Below, piece by piece: positions 1-57,107 of a stretch of DNA of 64,000 nt; position 1 is the first letter of the stretch, and every line of letters begins with the position of its first letter. Below the pieces are notes generated by a model. That model was given only the letters and a program-made list of their open reading frames with translations. It made no database searches and had not been told where the DNA came from. This DNA is from Pseudorhizobium sp. GTDB taxonomy: Bacteria; Pseudomonadota; Alphaproteobacteria; Rhizobiales; Rhizobiaceae. The stretch is from the NCBI GenBank assembly GCA_046314035.1, contig JBKBXP010000001.1, positions 580-64,579 on the forward strand. Reading direction: 5' to 3'. Position numbers and translations under genes: made by a program.

Positions 1-2238
1 GAACTCGTCGCGCGGGATCTCAAATCACTCGGCATCTACACGGCCCGGGCCCTTTCATTCGCCGGTGTCGAATATGAGATCCTCGAGCATTGCCTGACCG
101 AGGATCAGATCGCGGTATACGATTCCTATGCTGAGGCCTGGGCGATCATTCACGCCAACCTGCGCGAAGCGCTGGAAGCCACACGGATCGTCGACAGCGA
201 GACTGGCGGGACGCTCAACTCCGGTGCCAAGTCCGCAGCGCTGTCGATCTTCGAGGGAACCAAGCAGCGCTTCTTCGCGCAGCTGCTTCTGTCTATGAAG
301 CTCCCAAGCCTGCTGCCCGCTATCGATACGGCGATTGCCGAAGGGCAGGCCGTGGTCGTGCAACTGGTCTCGACGGCAGAAGCCATGCTCGACCGCCGAC
401 TTGCGGACCTATCGAACGAGGAACGCGAAACTCTGGAGATCGACCTGTCCCCGCGGGAATATGTCATCGACTATCTCGCCAAGAGCTTTCCTGTCCGCCT
501 GATGGCGGTGTTCACGGACGAAAACGGCAATCCTCGCTCAGAGCCCATGAGTGACGAGCAAGGCGCACCGGTGCTCTGCCGCTCTGCGCTTGCCGCGCGC
601 GACCGGATGATCGAACAGCTCTGCGCCTTGCCGCCGATTGCCACCGCGCTTGATGCCATCATCGAACGCTTCGGCGTCGAACAGGTGGCGGAAGTCACCG
701 GTCGTACACGCCGGCTCATCGTCGGCCGCGACGGTCGTCAGAAGCTCCAATCGCGGTCGCCGCGCGCCAACGTGTCTGAGACCCAGGCGTTCATGGACGG
801 CGCCAAGCGTATCTTGGTCTTCTCCGATGCTGGTGGAACCGGGCGCAGCTACCACGCTGATCTTACCGCGAGGAACCAGGCCCGCCGTGTCCACTTCCTC
901 CTCGAGCCGGGCTGGCGGGCGGACGCCGCAATCCAGGGGCTTGGCCGGACCAATCGCACCAACCAGGCATCAGCCCCGCTGTTCAGGCCGGTGACCACCG
1001 ACGTGCGCGGCGAGCGCCGGTTCATCTCGACTATCGCGCGGCGGTTGGACAGTCTTGGCGCTCTGACGCGCGGGCAGCGCCAGACCGGCGGACAGAACCT
1101 GTTTGATCCTGCCGACAATCTCGAAAGCATCTACGCCAAGGAAGCGCTCCATCGCTGGTTCGGGCTGTTGTTCACCGGCAAGCTTGAAGCGGTCAGCCTT
1201 GGACGATTTCAGGAGCTGACAGGCCTGCGGATTGAAGCGCCTGACGGGTCGATGGTCGATGACCTACCGTCGATCCAGCGGTGGCTCAATCGCATCCTGG
1301 CGCTTCCTATCGCCCTGCAGAACGCGATATTTGACGAGTTCATGGGACTGGCCGAAGCGCGCATCGATGCCGCGCGGCAGGCTGGCACACTCGACCTCGG
1401 CCTGGAGACCATCGCAGTCGAGGAGTTCACGATCCTGTCGGACACGTTGCTGCGCACGGATCCGGCATCGGGCGCGACCACCCATCTGCTGGAATTGGAA
1501 ATTGCCAGAGCCCTGAAGCCGCTCACGCTGAAGCGGCTCGAGGAGCTCCACGGCATCGCTGGGCAGCGGCAGCGGCTTCTGTGGAATGCCCGTTCAGGAC
1601 GGGTCGCATTGCTGGTGCCCGCTCGCAGCATTCTTGCCGATGACGGCACACGCGTGACCCGCTTCGAATTACTGCGCCCGCTCAAGCGCAGTCACATCAC
1701 CGAGGATCAGTTGGCGGAGAGCAGCTGGGAGGATATTGCCATCGACGCCTTCCGCAATGTCTGGTCAACCGAAGTCGCGGAGGCGCAAACCAGCCACAAG
1801 CGCGAGCACCTCTATCTTGCGACGGGCCTCCTGTTGCCGGTCTGGGACAAGCTTCCTTCGGATTTCGTGAGGGTGAGCCGCATCTCGGCGGCGGATGGTC
1901 GTTCGCTCCTCGGCCGGGAGGTTCCTGTCCATTCTGTTCCGGAACTGTGCCGGGCGCTGGGTCTGGAACGCGAGCAAACGCTCTCCGCCGATGACATCAT
2001 CCAGACCGTCCTGGCAAATGGCCGGGCCATGGAATTGGCCGGCCGCGAAAAGCTCATGGTCAAACGCAGCCTGGTCAATGGCTCACAGCGACTTGAACTC
2101 ACCGGATGGAGTGTTGCTCGGCTCGATTGGTACAAGGCGCAAGGCTGCTTTACCGAGATAATCCGCTACCAGACACGGCTGTTCGTGCCGATCGAAGGCG
2201 CAGCGAGCGTGATTGCCAGACTGGCATCATCGGCATAG
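1..2238 (+). CDS. Strawberry-notch-like SF2 helicase/NTPase (C-terminal part, truncated by window edge)
   Basis: Frame 1 is open from base 1 (ELVARDLKSLGIYTARALSF...) into the 295..2238 ORF. Motifs SDAGGTGRSYHAD and LEPGWRADAAIQGLGRTNRTNQ are typical of the strawberry notch helicase C domain. Confidence 0.9.
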   Translation, partial: ELVARDLKSLGIYTARALSFAGVEYEILEHCLTEDQIAVYDSYAEAWAIIHANLREALEATRIVDSETGGTLNSGAKSAALSIFEGTKQRFFAQLLLSMKLPSLLPAIDTAIAEGQAVVVQLVSTAEAMLDRRLADLSNEERETLEIDLSPREYVIDYLAKSFPVRLMAVFTDENGNPRSEPMSDEQGAPVLCRSALAARDRMIEQLCALPPIATALDAIIERFGVEQVAEVTGRTRRLIVGRDGRQKLQSRSPRANVSETQAFMDGAKRILVFSDAGGTGRSYHADLTARNQARRVHFLLEPGWRADAAIQGLGRTNRTNQASAPLFRPVTTDVRGERRFISTIARRLDSLGALTRGQRQTGGQNLFDPADNLESIYAKEALHRWFGLLFTGKLEAVSLGRFQELTGLRIEAPDGSMVDDLPSIQRWLNRILALPIALQNAIFDEFMGLAEARIDAARQAGTLDLGLETIAVEEFTILSDTLLRTDPASGATTHLLELEIARALKPLTLKRLEELHGIAGQRQRLLWNARSGRVALLVPARSILADDGTRVTRFELLRPLKRSHITEDQLAESSWEDIAIDAFRNVWSTEVAEAQTSHKREHLYLATGLLLPVWDKLPSDFVRVSRISAADGRSLLGREVPVHSVPELCRALGLEREQTLSADDIIQTVLANGRAMELAGREKLMVKRSLVNGSQRLELTGWSVARLDWYKAQGCFTEIIRYQTRLFVPIEGAASVIARLASSA

Positions 2239-2242
2239 TTCC

Positions 2243-2278
2243 TTGCCAAATGGCATTATTCAGAGTATATGATGCCAT
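2243..2278 (+). promoter_or_regulatory. Putative sigma70 promoter and palindromic operator of the Xre/RES TA operon
   Basis: TTGCCA (2243-2248), 17 bp spacer, TATATG (2266-2271). Inverted repeat ATGGCAT (2250-2256) / ATGCCAT (2272-2278) brackets the -10. Confidence 0.55.
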
Positions 2279-2291
2279 ATGGAGAACTGCC

Positions 2292-2705
2292 ATGCTTGCT
2301 CTGCAACCCGTTGATACCGCCGTTACCGCCTTCCGGCCCGATCCGATTACTCAGGACGAGGCAGCTGCCATGTTCCGGGCAGTCCTCAATCTGTTCGGCA
2401 AATGGGAACTGACCGACGAGCAGGCGGCAACCCTGCTCGACATGCCGGTTCGATCTTATCGGCGCTGGAAGGCGGAAGGGCCGGGACGCGTCTCGCGCGA
2501 TGGGCGTGCTCGTCTCTCCAACCTCATGGGCATTCACAAGGCGCTCCGGATCATCTTCTCGGAGGCGACCCGTGGTTATGCCTGGATCAGGGCGACCAAC
2601 GATGCATTCGGTGGCGTGAGTGGCCTTGACGTGATGCTCGGAGGCGAGCTCACCGACATCATGCGGGTGCGTCGCTACCTCGACGCCGAACGTGGTGGAT
2701 GGTGA
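2292..2705 (+). CDS. Xre/MbcA/ParS-family antitoxin
   Basis: ATG at 2292 after GGAGA. HTH (QAATLLDMPVRSYRRWK) plus C-terminal W..N..FGG..LD.ML..G motif; overlaps the RES gene. Confidence 0.88.
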   Translation: MLALQPVDTAVTAFRPDPITQDEAAAMFRAVLNLFGKWELTDEQAATLLDMPVRSYRRWKAEGPGRVSRDGRARLSNLMGIHKALRIIFSEATRGYAWIRATNDAFGGVSGLDVMLGGELTDIMRVRRYLDAERGGW

Positions 2706-3436
2706 GCGGAACGGCGGATATCCCCGTTTCTCGAGTTGAGTGGAAGGGTGCTGTTCGGATCATCCGCAGTGCCTTTCCGCCCATCGACCTGTTCGAGGAC
2801 ATCGCTGATCCAGCCGACTGGCCGCTATTGATCTCGGCAGAGCAGAAGACCAATCCTCGCATCATGGCGACGATTGGCAATCTTGACCTCGTTCCAGTCG
2901 ACCGACGCGTCGGCGGCAACGGCGCTTCCTACCTCATGGCGCCATTCACACATGTCAGCACCGACCGGCCAAGTCGCTTTACCGATGGCAGCTACGGCGT
3001 GCTCTATGTTGGCGACCGGTTTGAAACCGCGTTGTTCGAGACGATCCACCACCATGCCCGCTTCATGGCCCGAACCCACGAAGCGCCTGGCTGGACGTCG
3101 CAATTCCGGGAGATCGTCATGTCGGTAGATGCAGATTTGCATGATCTCCGAGTTCCGGCGGGGGAGCCAGTTCCGGCGCTCGATCCCGACAGCTACGCGG
3201 CATCGCAAGCGGTCTCGCGGCACCTCAGGGGCGCGGGATCGAACGGAATTGCCTACCCGAGCATCCGGCATCCCGGTGGGAAATGCGTCGCGCTCTTCTA
3301 CCCGGACTGCGCGTCGAACCCCCTACAGGGGCGGCACCTCGACTATCACTGGGATGGCGCGCGCGTCGATCTGGTGCGCGATGCTGGGACGGGCGCGGTC
3401 TTTCGTGTGGTGGACCTGCCCGCCAGTCAGACCTAA
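2699..3436 (+). CDS. RES-domain toxin (NAD+ phosphorylase family)
   Basis: SRFTDGSYGVLY, ETALFET and GIAYPSIR motifs supply the R-E-S residues; coupled to the antitoxin. Confidence 0.88.
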   Translation: MVSGTADIPVSRVEWKGAVRIIRSAFPPIDLFEDIADPADWPLLISAEQKTNPRIMATIGNLDLVPVDRRVGGNGASYLMAPFTHVSTDRPSRFTDGSYGVLYVGDRFETALFETIHHHARFMARTHEAPGWTSQFREIVMSVDADLHDLRVPAGEPVPALDPDSYAASQAVSRHLRGAGSNGIAYPSIRHPGGKCVALFYPDCASNPLQGRHLDYHWDGARVDLVRDAGTGAVFRVVDLPASQT

Positions 3437-3456
3437 TCGCTTCAAACCCGTAACCG

Positions 3457-4913
3457 TTAGATGTATCGCCGATAATCGGGGCTAACCACTTGGCCATCGG
3501 CCATGTACTTCAGCACCTCACCGACCTTTCGGGCGGCCCGGATGGGGACTGGTAGACGCTGGTTCATCTGCGTCGAATTCCAGTTGATCTTCGTCAGCGA
3601 CAAAACCTCTTCTGCGATTTGCGCTATCGTGCTGTCGCTGCTGGGGTGCGGGCAAAGCAGCAATGGTCGGGGCACATACAGACCTGGATAGGTGGCGTAA
3701 TAAGGGATGCTGCCATTGGTGTAGAGCAGACCCTTGCCATTTAGCTCAACGAACGTGCCTCGGAGGACCGGGTAATCGCCATCTCGCAGAATCTTTGCGT
3801 CATACGACTCCTGGACCCACACTAGATCGCGGTACTCTGTTTCCGCCTCATTAAGCGCTCGCAGGATGCCATCGGCCTCCTCGCTGCGGAAGCGCGATGT
3901 CTTCAAGATGATGACACGGGCCGGAGGATGTTTGTGGTGGTCCCGATAGGCCTTTAATGCGCCCTTCACGAGCTCATAAGCATCAGCCTCGGTCATGTAT
4001 GGATGGCGGCCACGCGTCTCGGTCTGAGCTCGCTTGCCCTTCAAGATAAACCCTCTGCCGCGCTCGTCGAACATCTGGGCAGCGCTGGTCCAAAGCTGCT
4101 GGCCGCTCACGTCGCGGTAGAAGCTGATCCCAATGTAGCAGGCGCGAAACTCCCCCTCCTTCGGTAAACGGCGCCATGGAATGCGTCCTGAGCCCTTGTA
4201 GTAGAGAGTGGTAATCAGGTTCCAAGTTCGTCCAGCCTGGTCCTGAATTTTCCGATCGCTGGAGACCTTCACCTTCCTGGGAATCTTGGCCTTCTCGTCG
4301 ATGACGTCTTCCCAGATAATCTGGATCGGGAAGTTGAGTGGCATGGCCCTTGCCTTCAGCAGTCCGCGGAAATTTGGGGCATCTGAGCCCCCGCATCCTC
4401 CACCTCAACGGTACCTTCGGCATCAGTCTTGGCATTCCATACCCGCTCAATCAGCGCCACAGGCAGTGCGACCACCGCGACATCGGGCCGGCTTCCGCTA
4501 TCATCGATCGTTTGAAGGATATCCATGATAGCATCGACCGCCATTTCGACCGCCTTTGCGTGATTGGGCTCCTTTATGATCCGATCAATTTGCGCCTTGG
4601 TGAGCGCGCGACAAGCGTCATCATCAACCTCGAAACCACAGCGGAACGGATTGTTATTGTGAAGGCCCGGGAAGTTAGGGTTCATGTTCGGGTGGCTTTC
4701 AGCCTTTGATGCGAACCCGCCTGCGGCCGTCAGGAAGAATTCCTTCGTTCCCTGAACCGTCTTTGAATCGCCTACTACGCCCAAGCGGATCTTGTCGCCC
4801 AGCGGCGCCTGTAGCGGACCGGCTTCGGTCAGCCCGAGACGAGGATCCTGATGGCTGTGCTGATCGCCAAATTCGAGCAGTGGCTCATCGAATATCCGGC
4901 ACTCAAACCTCAT
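3457..4913 (-). pseudogene. Short prokaryotic Argonaute (MID-PIWI, catalytically inactive), split by a 1-nt frameshift
   Basis: N-part [16 protein letters not shown]...DPRLGL; C-part ACYIGISFY...LTKINWN..Q...[11 protein letters not shown]. Adding one base to the C5 run at 4388-4392 joins them through [18 protein letters not shown], giving about 485 aa. Confidence 0.85.
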
Positions 4914-6233
4914 TGAACAACAGCTCCGAAGTATCGCAAGCATCTCGCTCCACTGCCGATCGTCGACCCCAAACATCGTCCGGCACTGCAGTTGGCAGCT
5001 CGATTTCCGGCGGAGGGTCGAAGCGCAGGGTTACAGCCGGTCCGATAGGCTCGGCGAACAGATCGGTGGCGCCGCTCTCATACTGCGTCAGGAAGCGATG
5101 CCACATAATTACTTGGCCACGGATCGCGGCGTTGTTTTCCATCCGCTTCTTCCCCGAGAGCAGCGCATCTGGGAAAGGGTGGCGCGTGTAGCCGTTCGTC
5201 GTGAAATGGTAGGTCGGACTGACCATCAAAAACCATTGATCCATCATGCATTCGAATTTCGGCACGAAGGCATGATGCCTTACGAAGCCTACCTTGCCAG
5301 GCACTTTCGTGCTCATGGTGACATTCACCACGTCTGCCTTCGTCTTCACCTTGGCCGACTGGTAATGGAATGTTCGTGGCTGGCTGTCCTCATGCGCCTT
5401 TACGTAGAAGATTTTATTATCCTTATCCCAAGCCAGATCATCTTGCATCTGATGCTGAAGCGTTTGACGCAACAGGAACGCGAAGTTGTTCTGCTCGTCT
5501 ATGTCGTCATGAAACCCAATCAAACTGGTCTCGATAGCTTCGACCTGGTCGATATCGACGAAACATCCTGTCACCGCCTCACGTGGGTCATGGAAGGACC
5601 AGAATGTGCCATCCTTGATCACCCAGTCGTATCGCGCGCTTCTCCAGTGTCGTACATCTCCTTGATCGCGCTCTTGCGATCAAAAGCCGTACTCGCAACG
5701 AAGATCTCGGTGGGCAAAGTAATCGGTAGAAAATTGACCAGTGCTGTTTCACCGCCGCCCAATGGGGGGACGTAGTATCCGAAACCATTGATGGGAACTG
5801 TCAGGGCCGCGAGCCGGTCGAGCGATGATTTGTCTAAAGCGTCCTGCGTCTTGTCAAACGTCAGCCGGCGCTGCTCCACTCCCGGTTGGACTTGAACCTG
5901 CGCCCAATAGTGGCTGTCGTCGCTCTCCCGGTACATCACGACGATGACTGGGAGGTTGGACGTCTTCCAGTAAGCAAGGTCCTTCACGTCCAGTAGGTAG
6001 GTGAAGCCGGTTTCCGTTTCGGACGTATATTTCGCTGCTCGGGTCGACTTGATCTGCACGGCAATCATCCGCGCCGTTGGCTCGCCATCGATCATCACTT
6101 CCGCCAGGCCGTCGATGCCCGCCTCCAGCCGACTACGAGAGTCAAATTGGAAGCCCATGGACAAGAAACGCTTGCGAACTGCCGCCTCGCCCAACTCGCC
6201 GATCAGTTGATTGTCGGTGATCCTTTTCGCCAT
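4903..6233 (-). pseudogene. DUF4365 (PD-(D/E)XK nuclease)-APAZ effector of a short pAgo (SPARDA/DREN-APAZ type), split by a 1-nt frameshift
   Basis: ATG 6233 [16 protein letters not shown]...GIDG...VQIKST. The frame breaks near 5632-5640 (GAAGCGCGCGATAC); one added base gives ...[20 protein letters not shown] and about 443 aa. The stop overlaps the pAgo start. Confidence 0.78.
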
Positions 6234-6419
6234 ACTCGGATGATAGAACATCGTAGCAACAACGCCATCTCGAATTTTGTAATTCGCTGATCTTCTCCAC
6301 GATTTCCTACTTCCTAAACCTTTTTGGCCGTCTCTATGAGAGGGAAGGGGGCTTTGCCCTGATTGAGCCATTTGGGCGTCGATGGTCGATGCGCGGGCTC
6401 ACAATCAGGAGTGTGTCCC

Positions 6420-8408
6420 ATGATCAAGTCGATCCCGCTGAACAAGCTCGTTCAATCGCCCCGTAATGTCCGCCGTCACACTGACCCGGCAGCAGATGCT
6501 GAGCTTAAGGCCAGCATCGCAGCACGCGGTCTGCTACAGAACCTGATCGTCAGACCCGCCGCCAAGGGCAAGTTTGAGGTCGAAGCCGGTGAGCGGCGTC
6601 GGCGTGCGATGCTCGCGCTGGCAGACGAAAAGATCCTCGCTCGCGATCACGACGTCACCTGTCTGGTCCTCGAGGACAGTGCCGAAGCTGCGGTCGAGAC
6701 CAGTCTCGCCGAGAACTTCCACCGTCTCGCCATGAACCCGGCCGACGAAGCCCAGGCCTTTGCGGCGCTTGTCGCAGGCGGTGCGAGTGTCGAAGATGTT
6801 GCCCGTCGCTTCGGTCTGACCGTACGCTTTGTCGAGGGCCGTCTGCGCCTTGCAACGCTTGCGCCCGTTGTGTTCGAGGCTCTGGCGTCCGGCGAGATCA
6901 CTCTCGACATCGCCAAAGCCTTCGGCGCGACCTCGGACCAGGACATCCAGGCTCGCGTCTTCGAGCAGGTCACCTCTGCCTATTATGCGCCCAATCCCGA
7001 TAGCATCCGGCGCATGGTTCTGTCCGGCACCGTCCGCGGCGGTGATCCGCGAGCGCGCCTTGTCGGCCGCGATGCCTACATCGCAGCCGGCGGTCGGATC
7101 GAGCGCGAACTGTTCGATGACGAAGACAGCGAATCCTGGGTCGACGTCGCGTTGCTCGAGAGCCTCGCCGCAGCGAAGATGGAAGAGCAGGCGAAAGCGC
7201 TCGCCGCTGAGCAGGGTCTCGCCTGGGTCAAGCCCACGCTCGATCCCTATGCCAGCCACGATCTCGTCGAGGGGCTGGTCCGACTTCCTGCCGAACCGGC
7301 GCCGCTGACCGAAGCCGAATTGGCAAGGCTCGACGAACTCGATACCTCCTATGACGAACATGCGGCGATCCTCGAAGACGAGGACAGTGCCGAGGAGGCT
7401 GTGGCTGCGGCCGAAGCGGCAATCGAGGCCATCGAACGCGAGTGCCAGGAAATCCGGGCCCGACCGCCGGTTATCGCGCCCGAACTCAAGGCCGAGGCAG
7501 GAATGGTGCTGGTGCTCTCCCGTGATGGGACGCCGGTTCTCCAGCCGGTGTTCTACGGCGAGCGTCAAGCTGAACCCGCCGAAGCCGACGGTGGGATCGA
7601 AGTCGTTGCTGGCGAGGAAGGTTCGGACAAGCGCCGGACGACCTTGTCCAAGCGCCTGGTTGACGAGCTCGCGATGCAGCGCCGGGATGTCCTGGCACTG
7701 CACGTTGCATCTGACCCCGGTCTGGCGCTCGACATCATGGTCTTCACGCTTGCCGATGCCGATACCCACGACTGGCGGGCGCGGGCTGCGAGCACGCTGC
7801 GCGCGCCTGTTCCGGCAGGCCCGATCATCGGCTTCGAAGCCAAGGATGCTCCGGCGAGCAGCGGGCTTGCCGAGTTCCGCTCCAGTCTCGACGAAAGCTG
7901 GCGCGCTGGTGACGATGCGATCTCCCGCTTCGATCTGTTTCGGGCGCTGCCCGATGACAGCCGCGCGGCCTGGCTTGGCTATGTCGTTGCCCGGTCGCTC
8001 GAGGCGAGCCTCAACATGGCCGGTGAGCGTCAGCTGCCATTCCAAGATCATCTCGGAAGCCTGGTCGGCATCGACATGGCGCAGTGGTGGCGCCCGACGG
8101 CGGCCAACTACTTTGATCGGGTGTCGAAGCAGGTGATCCTCGATGCGCTGACCGATGTCGGCGGTCTCGAGCTCTCCTCGCGCTTTGCGTCGGTCAAGAA
8201 GGGTGACCTGGCGATGAGCGCCGAGCGCGTCTTCGCCGGCACCTACATCACCGAGGTCGAGGTCCGCGAAAAGGCTCTGGCCTGGGTGCCCGAGGTCATG
8301 TGCTTCGCTTGCACTGCACCGGAGGTTGGTGAAGCCGAGATCGAAGCAGCTGACGCTGATCCTGGTGTCGACGGCGAAATTCATACCCCCCGCGAGCTGG
8401 CCGCCTGA
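6420..8408 (+). CDS. Long ParB/RepB/Spo0J-family protein (leading-region type, no adjacent parA)
   Basis: ParB N-domain (GLLQNLIV, AGERRRRA, SLAEN) and HTH; ATG 6420 after CAGGAG. Confidence 0.9.
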   Translation: MIKSIPLNKLVQSPRNVRRHTDPAADAELKASIAARGLLQNLIVRPAAKGKFEVEAGERRRRAMLALADEKILARDHDVTCLVLEDSAEAAVETSLAENFHRLAMNPADEAQAFAALVAGGASVEDVARRFGLTVRFVEGRLRLATLAPVVFEALASGEITLDIAKAFGATSDQDIQARVFEQVTSAYYAPNPDSIRRMVLSGTVRGGDPRARLVGRDAYIAAGGRIERELFDDEDSESWVDVALLESLAAAKMEEQAKALAAEQGLAWVKPTLDPYASHDLVEGLVRLPAEPAPLTEAELARLDELDTSYDEHAAILEDEDSAEEAVAAAEAAIEAIERECQEIRARPPVIAPELKAEAGMVLVLSRDGTPVLQPVFYGERQAEPAEADGGIEVVAGEEGSDKRRTTLSKRLVDELAMQRRDVLALHVASDPGLALDIMVFTLADADTHDWRARAASTLRAPVPAGPIIGFEAKDAPASSGLAEFRSSLDESWRAGDDAISRFDLFRALPDDSRAAWLGYVVARSLEASLNMAGERQLPFQDHLGSLVGIDMAQWWRPTAANYFDRVSKQVILDALTDVGGLELSSRFASVKKGDLAMSAERVFAGTYITEVEVREKALAWVPEVMCFACTAPEVGEAEIEAADADPGVDGEIHTPRELAA

Positions 8409-8443
8409 CCTCCTCCTGACAGGCTCGGCCACTCGCACCTAGA

Positions 8444-8485
8444 GAAGCGGTCCTTCGGCTTACGCCGGAGGGCCGCTTCCTTTTT
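8444..8485 (+). terminator. Intrinsic terminator after parB-like gene
   Basis: GAAGCGGTCCTTCGGC-TTAC-GCCGGAGGGCCGCTTC hairpin followed by CTTTTT. Confidence 0.7.
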
Positions 8486-8575
8486 GGAAGCAGAGCAGAG
8501 GGGGCTCGGGAACCTGTGGCACTGACCGGCGAACCCGTCGCCGACTGTCCAGATGCCTCAATCAGGAGAACCATC

Positions 8576-9517
8576 ATGGCCTATCGTAAGCGGCATGGCA
8601 GCGGCGTGTCGCCCGCCACCCGCATCACCCAAGAAATCATCGCCCGTCTGGAAGCAGGCACGAAGCCGTGGATCAAACCGTGGCGCGGTGTCCCGGTCTC
8701 CCGGCCCCTTCGGGCTTGCGGCATCCCGTACCGCGGCATGAACGTGTTTTGGCTCTGGATGGTCGCCGACATGTGCGGCTACGCCTCGCCGTTCTGGATG
8801 ACCTACAACCAAGCGAAATCGCTCGGAGCCCAGGTTCGCAAGGGCGAGAAGTCGACCATCGCGATCTTCTACAAGAGCTACAACAAAGAGGTGGAAGCCC
8901 CCGATACCGGCGAAAAGACCGACGAAGCCCGCCGGGTGCTGAAGGCCTATCCGGTCTTCAATGCCGATCAGGTCGAAGGGCTGCCCGAGCGCTTTCATCC
9001 GGCTGCAACGCTCGAATTGGTCGAGCCTGCAGGGCGCGAAGCCGAGCTCGACGCCTTCTTCGCTGCCATCCCCGTCAACCTGCGCCACCAAGGCTGCGAA
9101 GCCTATTATGAACCGACTGCGGATCGCGTTACAATGCCGCCAACGAGCCTATTCTCTGGTTTCGATCACTACTACGCCACGCTCGCACACGAGTTGTCGC
9201 ACTGGACCGGCCATGCGACCCGTCTGGGACGTGATCTCAAGAACCGCTTCGGCACAGCGGCATACGCCGCCGAGGAACTGGTCGCCGAACTCTCCAGCGC
9301 CATGCTGGGCGCCGAGCTGGGGCTGCCGGTCACGCATCTCGACAGCCACGCGAGCTATATCGAGCACTGGCTCAAGCTTCTGAAGCACGACGACCGCGCC
9401 ATCCTGACCGCTGCGGCCAAGGCCGAAGAAGCTGCGAGACTGCTGCTGAATCTCGGCGGGAGAGTCACTCCTGAGCAGTTTGACGACGTGTCAGACGACG
9501 CTGCGCTTGCGGCCTGA
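8576..9517 (+). CDS. ardC: ArdC antirestriction protein (ssDNA-binding domain + zincin-like metallopeptidase)
   Basis: PWIKPW, YRGMN, WMTYNQA, VRKGEK, VFNADQ, zinc motif HELSHWTG and YAAEELVAEL. Confidence 0.93.
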   Translation: MAYRKRHGSGVSPATRITQEIIARLEAGTKPWIKPWRGVPVSRPLRACGIPYRGMNVFWLWMVADMCGYASPFWMTYNQAKSLGAQVRKGEKSTIAIFYKSYNKEVEAPDTGEKTDEARRVLKAYPVFNADQVEGLPERFHPAATLELVEPAGREAELDAFFAAIPVNLRHQGCEAYYEPTADRVTMPPTSLFSGFDHYYATLAHELSHWTGHATRLGRDLKNRFGTAAYAAEELVAELSSAMLGAELGLPVTHLDSHASYIEHWLKLLKHDDRAILTAAAKAEEAARLLLNLGGRVTPEQFDDVSDDAALAA

Positions 9518-9528
9518 GGGAGGATGTC

Positions 9529-9951
9529 ATGGGCCGATCCGTCAGCTATCCCAGCGGCGCTATAGTCGCCTTCACGGTGCTCGAGGTCGAAAGCGAGGAC
9601 GACTGGGAATTTGAGTACGAATGGCTGCGCGACGATCTGCGCGAACGGGCATCCAGAGCCTTTCCGTCCCTGATCCCGCATGACGCCTGGCGCGGTCGGG
9701 AGGACCGGACCCTCATGCGCAATGCCTACGCCGATTTCGGCGTATCGGTCTATGGCGGGCTGGTGGCCGTCTGGATCGTCGAACGCGATGACGGGGCCTA
9801 TTGGGACGCCGATTGGCGCACGGCCCGTTCACCCCGCGCACAGCGCTGGCTGTCCCAGATTGCATCCCGGTTCGATGCCATGTTCGGCGACTACGATTGC
9901 CTTGGGCATATGTCGAACGGCGAGGGGGTCTACACCAAGCGCGCAGCTTGA
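9529..9951 (+). CDS. Hypothetical acidic/Trp-rich protein co-transcribed with ardC
   Basis: 140 aa ORF with GGAGG SD, 11 nt after the ardC stop. Confidence 0.7.
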   Translation: MGRSVSYPSGAIVAFTVLEVESEDDWEFEYEWLRDDLRERASRAFPSLIPHDAWRGREDRTLMRNAYADFGVSVYGGLVAVWIVERDDGAYWDADWRTARSPRAQRWLSQIASRFDAMFGDYDCLGHMSNGEGVYTKRAA

Positions 9952-10015
9952 GCTCCGCGACTTGGTCACGCCCATAGCTTTGGGTTGCCATCCCTGACTG
10001 AGCTTTGCCGGCCGC

Positions 10016-10214
10016 TCATGGTCTGTTGCCATGCGAGAGAGGCCCTGGGCCAGCCGCCAGCCTTGCGCAACCCGGCTTGGGCGGGCCCGTGTTGGCCTTC
10101 GCCCTTCAGGCTCAAGGCCTGCCCGCGCCAGCCCGCCAAGCCGGGTTTCCCCTGACGGGTGCGCAATCCTGCCTGAATGCTGGCCCTGACGGGCTCTCGC
10201 TGGCGCAGCCATGA
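10016..10214 (+). promoter_or_regulatory. Long branched hairpin, candidate single-stranded-DNA promoter (Frpo/ssi-like)
   Basis: Nested inverted repeats: GGGCCAGC 10047/GCTGGCCC 10179, TTGCGCA 10063/TGCGCAA 10160, AACCCGGCTTGG 10069/CCAAGCCGGGTT 10136. Lies directly upstream of a leading-region gene. Confidence 0.55.
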
Positions 10215-10253
10215 ACGGATGCGCCGGTGTCACGTCAGTCAGGAGGATATCCC

Positions 10254-11207
10254 ATGCACACGTCATTTGTCGACCAACTCGCCGGGCTCGATCTTGCCGG
10301 TTTCTCGATCGGACCCGCTCCCGTATCGACAAGCGATTTCCCGGTCCGGGAGGCGGTCGTCCAAACTCTCGAAGCGGTCTGGTCCGATCTTTTCGCCATG
10401 GTGTCCGGGACCGCTCTGGAAGCCGACGCCGAGGATCTTGGCTGGGCTTTCGTCAACATCTTTCACCGCTCGGCCGAACGTAAATCAACTGCCGTCGACC
10501 GGGCGACCGACGAGGTCCGCGCGCTGATTTCTACGGCCGATGGATCCGAGGTCCACACCCATGAACTCGAGACGCAGGTCGAGCGGGCGCAGTGCGCCGA
10601 AAGTGCCATGCTGGCGCTCGAAGAGATGCGCGAGGTCGCAGCAGCCCTTTACATCAACGAGTTCGGTTCCTCCTGGAAGCCGGTCTCCAGTTCGCGTTTC
10701 AATCACAGCGTCATGCTCACCTCAGCGCTCGTCGAAGGGCGCGACTTCCTGCGTGCCCGTGCCGAGGCCAAGCGCCGTGCGGCGGTGCCCGAAGGAACCC
10801 CGGTCGTCTTCGCTGGCGGGCGCACCCGTCATGCGACCGAAGACGATGCGCTGACCTTCGGCAACAATGTCTGGGCAACGCTCGACAAGGTTCGTGACCG
10901 TGTGCCCGACATGGTGCTCATCCATGGCGGCGACACCAAGGGAGTCGACCGCCTGGCGTCGAGCTGGGCTGAACGTCGCGGCATCCCACAGGTCACGTTC
11001 TCGCTCGACATGCGGCTGGGCGCCCGTGCCGGCTTCAAGCGTAACGAGCGGATGCTCTCCCTCGATCCGCGATACGTCATCGCCTTTCCGGGCAATGGCG
11101 TACTCGAACGTTTGGTGATCGAGGCCAAGACTCGGCGGATCACCGTTGTCGATCGCCGCGGGCCCCTTGGCACCAATCCGAAGAGCACTTCGGCAGGGAC
11201 TGACTGA
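10254..11207 (+). CDS. DUF2493 / YspA-related SLOG-family protein
   Basis: C-terminal SLOG motifs VVFAGG, LIHGG..KGVDRLA..WA, AGFKRNERM, AFPGNG; CAGGAGG SD. Confidence 0.8.
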   Translation: MHTSFVDQLAGLDLAGFSIGPAPVSTSDFPVREAVVQTLEAVWSDLFAMVSGTALEADAEDLGWAFVNIFHRSAERKSTAVDRATDEVRALISTADGSEVHTHELETQVERAQCAESAMLALEEMREVAAALYINEFGSSWKPVSSSRFNHSVMLTSALVEGRDFLRARAEAKRRAAVPEGTPVVFAGGRTRHATEDDALTFGNNVWATLDKVRDRVPDMVLIHGGDTKGVDRLASSWAERRGIPQVTFSLDMRLGARAGFKRNERMLSLDPRYVIAFPGNGVLERLVIEAKTRRITVVDRRGPLGTNPKSTSAGTD

Positions 11208-11329
11208 GGTCATGCCGGTCCTCGCGCCAGCGCCCAATCGGCGCTGGCGTCATCCATCAGAGGAAAGGCGCGCGCCTGTCGTTTGGAGCCAGCGAATAGC
11301 CGTTGGCTTCATTCACCAGGAGGCATTCC

Positions 11330-11791
11330 ATGACAAATATCGAGGCCGTGATGGCCGATTTTTTCGTCCGGCAAACGGAGCGGCAGGTGCAAGTGGCCGA
11401 AGAAATCCAGCAGCTCAAGACAGCCATTCTTCCGCGGTTGCGAGAGGCTGGCATCGCACGCGTCGAGATCCGCTTTGACGGCTGCGGCGACAGCGGTGCT
11501 GTTGAAGAATGTGCATGCCTCGATGCAGCCGGCGCGGCGATCCCGTGCCCGGATGTCTCCCTCATTGAAGGCGAAGCAGGCAGCGTTGCTCGTGCCGGTT
11601 CCGAAGAGCTGCCTTCACTCGGCCAGGCACTCGAGCAGCTGACCTACCTGGCACTCGAACGTCACCATCCAGGCTGGGAGGTCAATGACGGTGCCTGCGG
11701 TGAACTGGCGATCGATGTGGCCGAGGCGACCTTCGTGCTCGACTGCAGTCTGCGCTTCACCGCGACCGATGATCACTCGACCGAGCTGTAG
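11330..11791 (+). CDS. Hypothetical protein (DUF6878-like)
   Basis: FDGCGDSGAVE and GWEVNDGACG motifs; CAGGAGG SD. Confidence 0.7.
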   Translation: MTNIEAVMADFFVRQTERQVQVAEEIQQLKTAILPRLREAGIARVEIRFDGCGDSGAVEECACLDAAGAAIPCPDVSLIEGEAGSVARAGSEELPSLGQALEQLTYLALERHHPGWEVNDGACGELAIDVAEATFVLDCSLRFTATDDHSTEL

Positions 11792-11801
11792 GAGACCTGG
11801 C

Positions 11802-12230
11802 ATGGCACATTGCTACTACCACGCTCTCTCGTCGGTCCGGAAATGGGGCGGCACGGTTGATGACTATCTCCCGTTGCACCAGTGGTTCGACCAGTCGAAG
11901 GCTATTCTCGCAGACCCCCGTCACCGCGCGCTGCGGCACCATGCCGAGGGGATATTCATGCTTGAAACACTCTTCGGCGAGACCCTCGTCAATGCCGATG
12001 GCCGGGTCGTTCCGGTACGTCTGGTCGGCGAACAGCACGTACGTGAAGACCTGGGCTCGATCCCCTCCTTTGCTGATTGGGCGCGCTTGATCACGCCGCA
12101 GGCCTGGATGCTTCGAGGCAACCCTCTGGACGGCGCTGAAGGGGTGACGATCGACATGCCTCTCCCTGGCGAAGCAGGTGCGTCCAAGAATGTGCCACCT
12201 GTTGGAGGAGCGGTCAGTACGATGATCTAA
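11802..12230 (+). CDS. His-rich hypothetical protein (DUF6915-like)
   Basis: HALSS..KWGG, LHQWFDQSK, HRALRHHAEG and GEQHVREDLG; AGGAG SD 10 nt after the previous stop. Confidence 0.75.
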   Translation: MAHCYYHALSSVRKWGGTVDDYLPLHQWFDQSKAILADPRHRALRHHAEGIFMLETLFGETLVNADGRVVPVRLVGEQHVREDLGSIPSFADWARLITPQAWMLRGNPLDGAEGVTIDMPLPGEAGASKNVPPVGGAVSTMI

Positions 12231-12393
12231 GAAGTGGTTCTCCGGTGGAAGGTCAGCAGGGATGATCCGGCCAAGACCGGAGGGAAACGAGGCAGGGCAA
12301 ACCTGTTCAAGGCATCCAGCTCCACCCGGCTTCGATGCAAACCTGTCCCTGAATCACCCCCCGTCGAGACGCGCAACCCGGATCAGGTCCGGC

Positions 12394-12517
12394 CGAGTTG
12401 CCGGGCTGTGCCCGGCTGCCCGCACCACCCGAACCAGTTCCGGGTTCCCCTTCGGTGCGCTTCGCCATGGGGCGCTTCTGCTCGGGTTTTGCAGCCGGGA
12501 TGGACCCGGAATGCTCG
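12394..12517 (+). promoter_or_regulatory. Hairpin upstream of ssb, candidate ssDNA promoter
   Basis: CCCGGCTGC 12411/GCAGCCGGG 12491, ACCCGA 12427/TCGGGT 12482 and CGCACC 12421/GGTGCG 12454. Confidence 0.5.
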
Positions 12518-12532
12518 ATCAGGAGAAAGCCC

Positions 12533-12922
12533 ATGACCAATCTCGTTATCCTCGTTGGCCGCATCGCTCGCGACCCCGAGACCCGCACCACCCAGGGTGG
12601 AACCAGCATCACCTCGATCTCGGTCGTGACCGACCGTCCCGCCCGCAAGGATGGCAAGACCTACAAGGACGAAAACGGCTACACCGCCAAGGACAGCGAA
12701 TTCCACCGGATCACTTGCTTCAACGGCCTGGGCCAGAACGTCGCCAAGTATTGCACCAAGGGTCAGCTCGTGACGGTCGAAGGGCGCATCCACTACACCC
12801 AGTGGGAAGATCAGAGCGGCGCCAAGCGCTACGGCTGCGAGATCATCGCCGACAAGGTCGACTTCCTCACCAAGGGCCGCTCCGGCAGCAACGAAGGTGC
12901 TCCCGATATCGACGAGGACTGA
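12533..12922 (+). CDS. ssb: Single-stranded DNA-binding protein
   Basis: NLVILVGRIARDPE, KGQLVTVEGRI, acidic tail; ATG 12533 after CAGGAG. Confidence 0.95.
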   Translation: MTNLVILVGRIARDPETRTTQGGTSITSISVVTDRPARKDGKTYKDENGYTAKDSEFHRITCFNGLGQNVAKYCTKGQLVTVEGRIHYTQWEDQSGAKRYGCEIIADKVDFLTKGRSGSNEGAPDIDED

Positions 12923-12940
12923 ATGTCCTCACCCTGCGAC

Positions 12941-12979
12941 AAGGCCCCGGTGGCAGACGCCATCGGGGCCTTTTCTTTT
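12941..12979 (+). terminator. Intrinsic terminator after ssb
   Basis: GGCCCCGGTGGC-AGAC-GCCATCGGGGCC followed by TTTTCTTTT. Confidence 0.8.
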
Positions 12980-13036
12980 GCACGCCGGCGATGCGGCGGC
13001 GCGGGGGATCGAACCCCTTGCCGCCGCCGGGTTGAG

Positions 13037-13267
13037 CTACGCGGGAGCTATCCGCTTCAGCGTTTCCTCGATCCCGAGTGTCAATGCTCCTCGGACGATT
13101 TGACGCAGCTGCGCTGGTTCGATCGTCTCGGCGCCGCACTCGATCAGCATCCTGCCGAGTTCGATTGCTGCCTCCTCGCGGAGACGCGCCTCCTCGTTTT
13201 CGAGTTGGGCACGCTGTTCACGCAGCTTCCTCAGCGCATCGCGTGCAGTAGGTTTGGACCTGGCCAT
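13037..13267 (-). CDS. Small coiled-coil protein (DUF6437 / rhizobial TraC-like)
   Basis: 76 aa MARSKPTARDALRKLREQRAQLENEEARLREEAAIELGR; AAGGAAG SD. Confidence 0.65.
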   Translation of the reverse strand: MARSKPTARDALRKLREQRAQLENEEARLREEAAIELGRMLIECGAETIEPAQLRQIVRGALTLGIEETLKRIAPA

Positions 13268-13409
13268 AGTGCTTCCTTCTTGCTGGCCGTTGGTCCCCTC
13301 CGCTCTCGATCTTGGCACTGCGAGGTCATGTAGGAAAATGGTTTGTGGGGCAGACGTTGCACTTCTTCGCTGACGTTGGAGAGGTCTCTCTCGCAGAAAG
13401 ACCAAGTCT

Positions 13410-13544
13410 GATGCGGGCTTTGGGGCTGCGTCAAGGACGACGGGGCCCCACCATTTTTACCGGGCAAGCCCGGCAAAAATCGTTGCCCCCATCGCCGCTT
13501 CGCGGCCGCTATCGCGGTCCCTGACCCAGCCCGTCACCCACATC
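13410..13544 (+). promoter_or_regulatory. Long hairpin, candidate ssDNA promoter closest to oriT
   Basis: ATTTTTACCGGGC-AA-GCCCGGCAAAAAT (13453-13480) inside GGGCTGCGTCAAGGAC 13423/GTCCCTGACCCAGCCC 13517 and GATGCGGG/CCCACATC. Confidence 0.55.
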
Positions 13545-13590
13545 CTTCGCAGCTCCTGATGCAACGCATCGAACATCAGGAGGAAAGAAC

Positions 13591-13827
13591 ATGTACGCTT
13601 CACTGAACATTGCCGCTGCAGGTTGCCAAGCAGATCAGGCAGCCTTCGTTGCAGCTCTCGATCAGGCCCATGCCCGGTCCTATCACAGCTACTACACGCA
13701 GTACGTCCTGACCGATAACGAGGCAGGATACATCGCGGTCGACGAAGGAGATTACGGCGCCTTGCCCAAGGCCATGCTGGACCGTGTCATCGACACTGTG
13801 CCGGGCCGTCTCAGCGATGAATTCTGA
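13591..13827 (+). CDS. Small acidic hypothetical protein, first sense-oriented leading gene
   Basis: 78 aa ORF with CAGGAGG SD, followed by a terminator. Confidence 0.7.
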   Translation: MYASLNIAAAGCQADQAAFVAALDQAHARSYHSYYTQYVLTDNEAGYIAVDEGDYGALPKAMLDRVIDTVPGRLSDEF

Positions 13828-13838
13828 CCCGCCGGTTT

Positions 13839-13874
13839 GGGAGGAAGTCCGTCAGGGCTTCCTCCTTTCTTTTT
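13839..13874 (+). terminator. Intrinsic terminator
   Basis: GGAGGAAGTCC-GTCA-GGGCTTCCTCC followed by TTTCTTTTT. Confidence 0.75.
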
Positions 13875-13929
13875 GCTCGTAGACCGTTTCGGCATCCCTC
13901 AGCCGGTACGGGAAGGCGGGTCGCCAGCG

Positions 13930-14124
13930 TCAGTCGGGGGTATCGGTACGGTCGAGATCGGCGAGCCGCTCCGGCATGCCCAGGACCTTCAACGCCGCGG
14001 CCTCGATTGCCTCTGCCTGCGTCGGGAAAGCCTCGGAAGAACTGATCGACACACCGTTCGGGTAGGTGACTGTCGCCTGGAAACCGTTGCCCTTCGGTGT
14101 CGCACTCAACGTGACCTGGCCCAT
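13930..14124 (-). CDS. Small hypothetical protein (possible dsRBD-like beta-beta-beta-alpha fold)
   Basis: ATG 14124 after AAGGAAG; GFQATVTYPNG...TQAEAIEAAALKVL. Confidence 0.5.
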   Translation of the reverse strand: MGQVTLSATPKGNGFQATVTYPNGVSISSSEAFPTQAEAIEAAALKVLGMPERLADLDRTDTPD

Positions 14125-14299
14125 GCCGCGCTTCCTTGCTGCCATCATTAGTGCCTGCAGCATAGGCATCGATACCGTCTGTGCCTATCAGGATCCGAGG
14201 GGCGGCAACCTGTTAAGCGCCGTCGATTCTCGGGGTCACAAACCGCATCATCCGTTACAGGCTCAATAGCTGGTTCCTGTCCTCGCAGCTGGGGACTTA

Positions 14300-14330
14300 G
14301 GAGCACACCCTACGCGACGGGTCGCAGCAA
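14300..14330 (-). other. oriT nic region for the MOBF relaxase
   Basis: Minus strand reads GCGAC-CC-GTCGC-GTAGGGTGT^GCTC: a short inverted repeat followed by a sequence resembling the F nic (TGCGTGGGGTGT^GG). It lies just upstream of RHH-TraD-TrwC. Confidence 0.7.
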
Positions 14331-14897: not shown

Positions 14898-17283
14898 CCT
14901 CGTCAATTTCACGCGCGGCAGCCAGCTGCTCGGACACTTCAGCTTCATGTTCGCGGCGGGTCTCAAGGGCCCACTGATCGTTGCCGCTCTCGTGATCTCA
15001 TGGACCTCCTGGTGGACCATTTCGGCAGGGCTCACCGATCACGAAGTCTATCTGGTCTGGATACGGATCTATGCCGCCATCTACGGCTTCATGGAGTTCG
15101 ATCCCGCAAAGCGTATCACTCTGGAAACCGCCTTTGGCGCGACCATCCAGTTTCCGATTGCCCAGCTCGATCGCTACCCGCCGGTTGCCCATGCGTGGGA
15201 GAAGCTGACGGATTTGCTGACCAGTGCCTTGTGGCGTTCCGGGTTCCTGTTGGTCCCCGCCTTTGCCGTCTTCTACTGGTTCGCCGAGCGGTTCGGAGGC
15301 CGGTCAAAGGAGCGCAAACACGAGCGCGGCGCGATGCTGGTCACGCTTCCCGAGCTCGTCGACGAACTGACCACCCACAACCGGCGCGAGCGCACCCGTG
15401 AGCTCGATTCCGCGCTGGGCTGGAAATGGCGGCTCAGCCTGCGGCGGGAAATTGTCCGGGTCTTTCCTTATAGGCCATCGCATATCGCCACGGTCGCTTA
15501 TCCCTGGCGGCTCGAGCAGAGCCACGCGATGCTCATTGGCACGACCGGTATGGGCAAGACCGTGGCGATCTCCGACATGATCGCGGAAGCAAGAGCCAAG
15601 GGTCAGCGCTGCGTTGTCTTCGATCTGACTGGCGCCTTTATCGAGCACTTCCATGCCGCCCATTGCGACATCATTCTGAACCCGCTCGATGCGCGCTGCC
15701 CCCAGTGGAACCTGTTCGATGAATGCCGTTCCGAAGGCGAGTTCTGGGCCGCCGCGGACGCCCTCGTGCCTCACGACGGAGGCGGTGAAGCCCAGTTCTG
15801 GGTGATTGCTGCCCGCGCGCTGTTCGTCGAATTCTGCCTCAAACTCGTGGCCGAGGGCAGGGCGACCAACGAAGCCTTGGCGCGCGAGCTGATGACCGCG
15901 GACCTCTCGCGCGTTCATGCCATGATGCGCGGAACGATCGCCGATCCGCTGACCGCGCCGGAAGCTGCACGCATGGCGGAATCGATCCGGGCCGTCTTCA
16001 ACGTGAACGCCAAGGCGCTCAAGCTGCTGCCCACTGCCGGACCTCGTTTTTCGGTTCGCCAATGGATCGAAGACGGGGCCGATAGCGCTCGAAGCGAAGG
16101 CTCGATCCTGTTCATTTCTGCCCGCTATGTCGACATGAGCGTCTGCGCGCAGTTGCTCACGCTCTGGCTCGACACGGCAATGAATACGCTGATGACGATG
16201 CCCCGTACTCGCGATCTCAAGTGCTGGTTCTTCGTCGATGAGCTGGGGGCGTTGCACCGCCTGCCGGCCCTCGAGAAAGGCTTGCAGACGGCGCGCAATT
16301 TCGGCGGCGCGATTGTTCTTGGTCTTCACGCTTATGCCAAGCTCAAGGAGGTCTACGGCGAGAACATGGCGATGACGCTGGCATCGCTCGCCCGGACCAA
16401 ACTGATCCTCGGAACCGCCGACCGCGAAACGGCCACCTGGTGCTCCGACTTCATCGGCCATCGCCAGGTCAGGGACATGGAGGAGGGCTACACTTACGGC
16501 TACAACAATGCCCGTGATGCGGTCAGCCTCACCCCGCGCAAGCATATCGAGCCGCTCCTGCTGCCCGACCAGCTGATGAACCTGCCGCGCCTGTCGGGGT
16601 ACATCAAGTTCCCCGACGGCTTTCCCGCCGCACCGGTCAAACTCAAGCCCGTTGACCGACCCAAGCGAGCGGAGACGTTCATCGCCAGGGTCAAGGAAAG
16701 CCCGAAGGCGAGGGGCACCGTGCCCCATTCGTCGACAGAGCAGGAAGAGCAGCCGGCAGTGGCGACAGGCAACGAGCATCCCTCGTCCAACGATGACGGA
16801 GCGGGCAAACCGGTCGTCCCAAAGCAGGGAGAGCTGGCCCTGGATCAGGGTGCGCGAGCCGCGCCGAAACAGGAGCCTGACGTGCCATCCAAGGACCTTG
16901 AACGGGCAGTTGAACGCACACCCGGCAAGACGTCAAAGGAGCAGAAACCGGCAGCTCACTCCGGGCAAGAGAAGGCTGGCAAGGCCAAGAAGGAGCGATC
17001 ACACACCAGAACCGATGCCCCGCCGCGAAAGACTGGACCTTCCGCCCGCCCACTTCTCCCGACGGGCGAAGCCGCAGCGATTCCGGATCAGCCAGCTTCT
17101 GCCAAGGGTGGAGCCCGGCCCGGCGCGCCCGACACTAAGGCGCTGCAAGAGGACAAGCCGGACACCCCGAAGAGCCGAGGCTCCAGCGATGCCGCCGCGC
17201 GCAAGCTGATGCTCGAGGATGGTCTGCGGGAGCATGAGCCTCCGCCGATCACTGGTCCGGATCTTGGCGACATGGAGATGTGA
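14887..17283 (+). CDS. traD: Type IV coupling protein TraD/TrwB
   Basis: Two N-terminal TM segments, Walker A GTTGMGKT, Walker B FVDELGAL, long low-complexity tail; ATG 14887 after GGGAGG. Confidence 0.92.
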   Translation: MKRNLVNFTRGSQLLGHFSFMFAAGLKGPLIVAALVISWTSWWTISAGLTDHEVYLVWIRIYAAIYGFMEFDPAKRITLETAFGATIQFPIAQLDRYPPVAHAWEKLTDLLTSALWRSGFLLVPAFAVFYWFAERFGGRSKERKHERGAMLVTLPELVDELTTHNRRERTRELDSALGWKWRLSLRREIVRVFPYRPSHIATVAYPWRLEQSHAMLIGTTGMGKTVAISDMIAEARAKGQRCVVFDLTGAFIEHFHAAHCDIILNPLDARCPQWNLFDECRSEGEFWAAADALVPHDGGGEAQFWVIAARALFVEFCLKLVAEGRATNEALARELMTADLSRVHAMMRGTIADPLTAPEAARMAESIRAVFNVNAKALKLLPTAGPRFSVRQWIEDGADSARSEGSILFISARYVDMSVCAQLLTLWLDTAMNTLMTMPRTRDLKCWFFVDELGALHRLPALEKGLQTARNFGGAIVLGLHAYAKLKEVYGENMAMTLASLARTKLILGTADRETATWCSDFIGHRQVRDMEEGYTYGYNNARDAVSLTPRKHIEPLLLPDQLMNLPRLSGYIKFPDGFPAAPVKLKPVDRPKRAETFIARVKESPKARGTVPHSSTEQEEQPAVATGNEHPSSNDDGAGKPVVPKQGELALDQGARAAPKQEPDVPSKDLERAVERTPGKTSKEQKPAAHSGQEKAGKAKKERSHTRTDAPPRKTGPSARPLLPTGEAAAIPDQPASAKGGARPGAPDTKALQEDKPDTPKSRGSSDAAARKLMLEDGLREHEPPPITGPDLGDMEM

Positions 17284-17320
17284 GCATGTCGCTGAGTTCC
17301 TCGGTATCGGGGACCGACCC

Positions 17321-25921: not shown

Positions 25922-25923
25922 AG

Positions 25924-32873: not shown

Positions 32874-32916
32874 TTTGGCATAAAAGCTTGAGACCGTGAG
32901 GTCGAGCACTCGCCGT

Positions 32917-42374: not shown

Positions 42375-42407
42375 GTCTGTTGTCCCGCCTGGATGTGGTT
42401 GGCCCGG

Positions 42408-50139: not shown

Positions 50140-50168
50140 GGAGATAGGGATCCTTTGGTGATGGGGTG

Positions 50169-53521: not shown

Positions 53522-53525
53522 GGGA

Positions 53526-57097: not shown

Positions 57098-57107
57098 GGG
57101 CTTCCCC

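Follow-up and report, generated by a model that had tools for sequence, protein, structure and literature searches.

The DNA analysed in our study was a stretch of 64,000 nucleotides from Pseudorhizobium sp. (the window, whose positions are used for numbering throughout). At 3457-6233 on the minus strand, the window was found to contain a SPARDA operon, in which a gene encoding a DREN(DUF4365)-APAZ effector nuclease is followed by a gene encoding a short prokaryotic Argonaute (pAgo). By its sequence the operon is a close orthologue of NbaSPARDA, and the copy in the window is an ordinary, recently inactivated member of a well-characterised family. The listing of open reading frames (ORFs) contained four consecutive ORFs on the minus strand, at 5619-6371, 4903-5622, 4356-4976 and 3457-4344. 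The parts of the operon and the two breaks that were found in it are given below.

5619..6233, minus strand: 5' fragment of the DREN(DUF4365)-APAZ gene (Pfam DUF4365, PADLOC PDLC02398, PDB 9jsb_D)
5640..5641, minus strand: break 1, AAA to AA, GAGAAAGC to GAGAAGC, at codon ~199, inside APAZ
4903..5637, minus strand: 3' part of the DREN-APAZ gene, residues 200-443, in a shifted frame (PADLOC PDLC02398, PDB 9jsb_D)
4356..4913, minus strand: 5' fragment of the short pAgo gene (PADLOC PDLC02376, alignment to relatives)
4388..4394 with the gap at 4393/4394, minus strand: break 2, GCCGGGGGC to GCGGGGGC, at pAgo codon 174-175
3457..4344, minus strand, from ATG 4344: 3' fragment of the short pAgo gene, residues 191-485, the rest of MID and PIWI (PADLOC PDLC02376)

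The sequence-only reading of the window had described the locus as a SPARDA-type short-Argonaute nuclease system, and the PADLOC, Pfam and PDB matches agreed with this description. The PADLOC profile Aga_REase-PNTD1-PNTD2 (PDLC02398, 429 positions) was matched over positions 1-196 by ORF 5619-6233 and over positions 201-422 by ORF 4903-5622 (E 5.9e-87), and the profile pAgo_I (PDLC02376, 455 positions) was matched over positions 1-162 by ORF 4356-4976 and over positions 179-455 by ORF 3457-4344 (E 6.4e-122). The first ORF contained Pfam DUF4365 (E 1.9e-29). SPARDA systems (clade S2B) are recognised by a DUF4365/DREN-APAZ gene that directly precedes and overlaps a short MID-PIWI pAgo gene; this arrangement was present in the window, and the overlap between the two genes, ATGAGGTTTGA, was the same in relatives. 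The PD-(D/E)xK catalytic residues D41, Q60 and K62 (Nba numbering) were conserved, with GIDG...VQIKS at matching positions in the alignment to 9jsb_D. Two other characters of the family were found to be lacking. The unbroken frames of ~443 and ~485 codons were interrupted by a 1-nucleotide (nt) deletion in each gene, as compared with loci L018-L024, and the MID guide pocket (N181, F182, R183, K187, K240, W159 and W201) was incomplete, with codons 176-190 being unread.

The 5' fragment of DREN-APAZ encoded native residues 1-198, comprising the whole nuclease domain, the bridging loop and ~38 amino acids (aa) from the start of APAZ, followed by six out-of-frame residues and a TGA at 5621-5619; it matched residues 1-191 of PDB 9jsb_D with an E value of 2.4e-77. 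The start ATG 6233 was taken as equivalent to the Nba start because the positions of D41, Q60 and K62 coincide; public gene calls start DREN-APAZ at the upstream ATG 6251. The longest ORF of the 3' part starts from GTG 5622, overlapping the upstream stop, and the part matched residues 201-439 of 9jsb_D (E 9.8e-81). The pAgo 5' fragment starts from ATG 4913 and contained native residues 1-175 (the N-terminal part of MID), 10 out-of-frame residues and a TGA. The pAgo 3' fragment was 96% identical to an intact orthologue (P0001), which aligned without gaps to NbaAgo (PDB 9jsb) over residues 1-485 (E 2e-242). Since this alignment is gap-free, the NbaAgo numbering applies to the window pAgo. The GTGA overlap at 5619-5622 and the possible restart at ATG 4344, both pointed out in the sequence-only reading, were seen as described.

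The breaks were mapped by MAFFT and BLAST DNA alignment against an uncultured Sphingobium metagenome-assembled genome (MAG; L019), a Sphingomonadales MAG (L020) and a Sphingobium scionense draft genome (DSM 19371; L018), whose operons showed 95.8%, 94.6% and 86.1% nucleotide identity to the window, respectively. Exactly two uncompensated 1-nt deletions were found in the coding sequence of the operon, one per gene, which bears out the earlier view that each gene needs one extra base. The first break had been expected near 5632-5640 and was mapped at 5640-5641. On the minus strand the window reads ACTGGAG-AAGCGCG against ACTGGAGAAAGCGCG in the relatives, and AAA was present in all three. The second break had been placed in the C5 run at 4388-4392, which was nearly right; the gap adjoins the run at 4393/4394, and L019 has an equal five-base run with one additional base just before it. 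On the minus strand, GATGCCGGGGGC in the relative corresponds to GATGCGGGGGC in the window, and the window sequence GATG-CGGGGGCT (which reads GATGCGGGGGCT) was aligned to GATGCCGGGGGCT in L019. On the simplest reading, break 2 would be the loss of one C of CC adjoining the G5 run. A change of G6 to G5 from an unseen GCG-GGG-GGC ancestor would be equally frame-restoring and is a possible alternative. When an X was placed at each break, the frames were open over 443 and 485 codons, with one terminal stop each.

Residues G176-A190 of pAgo were contained in neither product; their frame is open, but it lies between break 2 and ATG 4344. The residues N181, F182, R183 and K187 fall in this unreachable segment, which includes the FRGLLKA segment of MID that had earlier been described as lost from both fragments. 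In the guide-bound structure of NbaSPARDA, R183, K187 and K240 hold the 5'-phosphate of the guide, F182, W159 and W201 form the base-1 pocket, and N181 touches the base (PMC12205087). The product of the first break is a free nuclease domain with ~38 APAZ residues, the remaining APAZ being separate. The pAgo 3' fragment contained the substitution G407A at a position where glycine was invariant in 80/80 relatives. The breaks hit the APAZ scaffold in one gene and the guide pocket in the other, which have to work together, and we infer a probable loss of function in the window copy.

The relatives comprised 80 related loci from a scan of a genome collection. The pAgo was found as one unbroken match in 80/80 loci, so that homologues naturally split at the same points, which would have spoken against a loss in the window, were not found among them. 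DREN-APAZ was a single match in every locus that contained it, except for about 2-4, among them two with clear damage. In Consotaella aegiceratis (L034, 161-1469) DREN-APAZ contained a frameshift near residue 360, and in the Phyllobacteriaceae MAG SP17 (L042, 3277-5947) a full DREN-APAZ was followed through a ~1.1 kb insertion by a duplicated C-terminal remnant beside pAgo. A search with the PIWI fragment gave a length of ~485 aa (482-499) for 116 of the best 120 database matches. Three annotated homologues of 294-295 aa (P0048, P0052 and P0105), known from protein calls alone, start at Met191 as in the window, and two annotated pAgo homologues (P0131 and P0133) were truncated in other ways. 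P0131 comes from a second assembly of Sphingobium scionense, and some of the truncated annotated pAgos may be assembly errors because the draft L018 of that species is intact. In PLSDB, 44 plasmids contained a homologue, 19 of which were typed as conjugative, and about 3-4 appeared disrupted (in two pieces or with no annotated coding sequence). A megablast search of the nucleotide sequence of the locus against the PLSDB plasmids gave no match.

Substitutions were counted at codons where one of three taxa differs and the other two agree. In the two SPARDA genes, 20 of the changes on the window branch were nonsynonymous and 47 synonymous, as against 13 and 92 on the L019 and L020 branches combined (odds ratio 3.0, Fisher p=0.0056). 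For comparison, the window branch showed 14 and 149 such changes in five flanking genes (odds ratio 4.5, p=1.3e-4). The relaxed constraint is specific to the window SPARDA copy. The decay is slight, and therefore the inactivation would be very recent; the ~13 excess amino-acid changes and the two indels appear to fit neutral drift over approximately the last tenth of the window-specific branch.

The window SPARDA is most probably a recent pseudogene, with a probability of about 0.8, which is also our confidence in the following explanation taken as a whole. The system consists of a DREN-APAZ effector nuclease and a short Argonaute that is catalytically inactive, and it occupies a variable slot as cargo in antisense orientation. 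In intact NbaSPARDA and XauSPARDA, the Ago-APAZ heterodimer loads small RNA guides and recognises complementary invader DNA, filament polymerisation frees DREN for collateral DNA degradation, and the systems act as abortive anti-plasmid/anti-phage defence (PMC12205087; bioRxiv 10.1101/2025.04.08.647717). In the window, two independent 1-nt deletions would inactivate both genes, APAZ being cut at residue ~199 and the cut in Ago leaving N181, F182, R183 and K187 in no product. A cost to fitness, or autoimmunity in a host that carries several conjugative elements, may plausibly explain the loss, and neutral decay is plausible as well. SPARDA is not intrinsically incompatible with the element, because L019 and L020 keep an intact SPARDA in the same slot. 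The earlier proposal that the system was silenced because of self-targeting is unproven, and it is weakened by these intact copies in the sister elements.

The breaks look real. The source genome is a MAG of 626 contigs (81.6% complete, 3.1% contamination), and the window lies on a 70.1-kb NCBI contig (C1). The exact 185-aa and 295-aa pAgo fragments were recorded on a separate Logan contig of 3,096 bp, and the 210-aa DREN fragment was recorded from both NCBI and Logan. Neither break context (AAA to AA, CC to C) is a long homopolymer. About 25 other genes of the window spanned their Pfam profiles end to end, and in the indel lists against L019, L020 and L098 over window 457-14315, the other uncompensated indels were intergenic or lay in sequence without a conserved frame; the earlier statement that no other gene of the window is frameshifted is consistent with both results. 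An indel at window 13033 relative to L098 was considered as a broken gene and rejected, the surrounding sequence having no conserved frame. The ParB-like gene of L020, a long-read MAG, contained one extra base, compared with the window and L019, at the site matching window 7625, which may be a real frameshift or an assembly error. Within the MAG, no internal stops were found in the scanned rpoC and uvrA pieces, and two rpoC C-terminal copies occurred on contigs C302 and C388, a hint of strain heterogeneity or contamination. Misbinning of C1 was examined and gave no clear sign (GC 61.5% vs 63.2%, tetranucleotide distance rank 18/150), and no overlap that would point to a circular molecule was found between the ends of C1. 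An exact-pattern scan of JGI metagenome contigs over break 2, with 0 or 1 extra base, found neither allele.

Some points weigh against a recent pseudogene. The decay consists of one substitution at a strongly conserved site, with no stop codons and no larger deletions, and the statistical signal depends on an excess of about 13 amino-acid changes. The source is a fragmented MAG, the breaks were read from assembled contigs alone, the Logan contig may stem from the same sequencing run, and it is possible, though unlikely, that the reads carry a systematic error or that both assemblers picked a minority allele. A slip of G5 to G6 would restore the exact pAgo, so that break 2 is revertible in principle. 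If the breaks arose by sequencing, assembly or consensus error, or from a mixed population, the SPARDA of the organism would be intact, with AAA at break 1 and GCCGGGGGC or GCGGGGGGC at break 2, where the window has GCGGGGGC at 4388-4394. The fragmentation, contamination and apparent strain heterogeneity of the MAG favour this explanation, as do near-identical pAgos called truncated on megabase contigs elsewhere (e.g., P0131 against the intact L018). However, the separate Logan contig contains both pAgo fragments as well, long homopolymers are absent from the two sites, and over the ~14 kb shared with relatives no further uncompensated coding indel was found, with untruncated Pfam coverage elsewhere. 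Moreover, an artefact would not yield an excess of nonsynonymous changes specific to one lineage and to these genes, and two errors inside one 2.8-kb operon of 64 kb are improbable by chance. The assembly error that had been offered earlier as an alternative is accordingly disfavoured, and we regard it as unlikely.

Two further alternatives from the sequence-only reading would leave the system functional, and both are disfavoured. In one of them, expression would be switchable by ribosomal -1 or replication slippage (G5 to G6 and back) at the G5 run, so that full-length pAgo would be made in small amounts or by a subset of the cells; indeed, the exact ancestral pAgo reading is restored either by a -1 P-site slip on GCG-GGG-G or by the addition of a G. 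However, DREN-APAZ is broken by the loss of an A at the non-slippery GAGAAGC, so that repair of pAgo alone leaves the system broken. The G5 run also occurs in the nearest relative, whose frame is intact; none of the 80 related loci is frameshifted here, five bases are short for phase variation, and the relaxed constraint speaks against a maintained function. Such a switch is very improbable, and programmed frameshifting was rejected, the site in gene 1 being non-slippery and no relative being shifted. In the other alternative, DREN, APAZ, MID-N and MID-C/PIWI would be made separately via GTG 5622 and ATG 4344 and would reassemble into a four-part system. It draws on the presence of a start codon near each break, with GTGA on the upstream stop and AAGG 6-9 nt before ATG 4344; these start-like signals are, however, ordinary coding sequence in intact relatives, and M191 is conserved. 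The break in APAZ falls inside the domain, none of the 80 related pAgo loci is split at these points, and the essential segment of residues 176-190, which forms part of the guide 5'-phosphate and base-1 pocket (PMC12205087), is in no product, which makes a functional split equally hard to credit.

The recent pseudogene of the window was compared with known systems. NbaSPARDA (Novosphingopyxis baekryungensis; PDB 9jsb and related entries; PMC12205087, PMC12774872) has the same two-gene layout with lengths of ~442/443 and 485 aa, and the window encodes the DREN residues D41/Q60/K62 and the residues of the Ago guide pocket at the same positions. In contrast to NbaSPARDA, each of the window genes contains a 1-nt deletion, the pocket codons are present in the DNA but unread, and a loss of activity would be expected. 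XauSPARDA and EaeSPARDA (PDB 9qbl, 9qbp and 9qbq) belong to the same family (pAgo E ~1e-177, DUF4365-APAZ E ~1e-53) and are more distant in sequence; they are anti-plasmid systems that cause cell death by non-specific DNA degradation (bioRxiv 10.1101/2025.04.08.647717). They are intact and chromosomal or cloned, whereas the window copy is broken and lies on a conjugative element. L019 and L020 share with the window the order Sbn, Xre, RES, antisense SPARDA, ParB and ArdC, and an operon of 94.6-95.8% nucleotide identity. Both genes are intact there, and the flanks are more diverged (~84-91%) than the operon.

Conjugative elements are hotspots of defence cargo and carry anti-defence islands in their leading regions. 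The window fits this pattern with a defence system among ssb, ardC and parB-like early genes, but its cargo runs opposite to the early genes and is apparently dead. The structure and mechanism of SPARDA were solved in 2024-2026, and by itself a dead SPARDA copy matters little. As a natural case, it illustrates cleanly that a conjugative element can lose an abortive anti-plasmid Argonaute system which sister elements keep. The more useful by-product is the evidence for the RES-parB interval of this element family as an exchangeable defence slot, which may be relevant for plasmid-plasmid competition.

The window is a conjugative element with a MOBF relaxase and an F-type type IV secretion system (T4SS). 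The features around the operon are as follows.

295-12922, plus strand: leading-region block with Sbn-like helicase, Xre-RES, ParB-like, ArdC, YAcAr/SLOG, DUF6878 and SSB (Pfam)
2106..3436, plus strand: Xre-like antitoxin and RES-domain toxin (Pfam Xre-like-HTH, Xre_MbcA_ParS_C, RES)
6363..9517, plus strand: ParB-like protein and ArdC anti-restriction protein (Pfam ParB_N, HTH_ParB, ArdcN, MPTase-PolyVal)
17219-20248: TrwC/MOBF relaxase (Pfam)
39672-57190: F-type transfer genes TraE, K, B, C, U, N, H and G (Pfam)

The position of the operon in the leading region of a conjugative element, as proposed earlier, was supported by the early genes, TrwC and the F-type Tra genes found by Pfam; the co-oriented early genes lie on the side opposite to the relaxase, and the element has a relaxase as well as a T4SS. 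The ORF strands and the Pfam neighbours likewise confirmed that SPARDA is antisense to its neighbours. It lies between RES and parB, an arrangement common to L019 and L020. The RES-Xre pair is convergent with pAgo, the RES stop being 20 bp from the pAgo stop, and parB-ardC is divergent from the operon, followed by YAcAr/SLOG, DUF6878 and SSB, all on the plus strand. In 15 of the 80 loci, a ParB or ArdC homologue was found no more than 6 kb from SPARDA, for the most part in divergent orientation. A class-wide search for the ParB protein gave, outside its own genome, homologues at 32-42% identity only.

In comparison with L019, the operon showed 95.8% nucleotide identity, as against ~84% overall in the surrounding backbone. 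Since the operon is more conserved than its flanks, the ancestor of the SPARDA cassette would be more recent than that of the flanks, which suggests that the cassette may have been exchanged more recently than the backbone, by cassette-level recombination. In the L020 genome, the homology to the window (~91% nucleotide identity) extended over 457-14315 and ended at ~14315, and the module of leading-region genes appears to be swapped as one block; this genome also carries a 6.6-kb insertion after ardC. The MAG of the window was found to contain a second leading module on contig C79 (L108, 3120-8381), with Sbn, Xre, RES, ParB and ArdC at 92-95% aa identity. Its RES-parB slot contained, in place of SPARDA, an intact antisense Lamassu system and a DUF6933/PDC-S63 gene. 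The Lamassu genes on C79 are as follows.

7728-8381: LmuC
5803-7731: LmuB
3873-5831: LmuA

A third, distantly related conjugative element was present on contig C2 (~4875-38113) of the same MAG, with aa identities of 47% for Sbn, 39% for ParB, 36% for ArdC, 37% for YAcAr and 26% for TraC. SPARDA occupied the RES-parB slot in three loci (the window, L019 and L020), L073 had a divergent SPARDA there and C79 a Lamassu system, and the idea of a defence slot is based on these five loci. It is possible, though rather doubtful, that in this family of alphaproteobacterial conjugative elements RES-parB is a swap-in slot for anti-plasmid abortive systems, in which the cargo would always be antisense to the early genes and expressed only after complementary-strand synthesis, and that SPARDA was selectively inactivated here since the C79 and C2 elements of the host would trigger it. 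A promoter/terminator scan of 3300-6550 gave results at chance level. Elsewhere in the window, at 24083-37172, a large second defence insert was observed, containing genes for an AAA protein, an FtsK-like protein of 1803 aa, a PAPS-reductase-like protein and two further proteins of 513 and 1139 aa.

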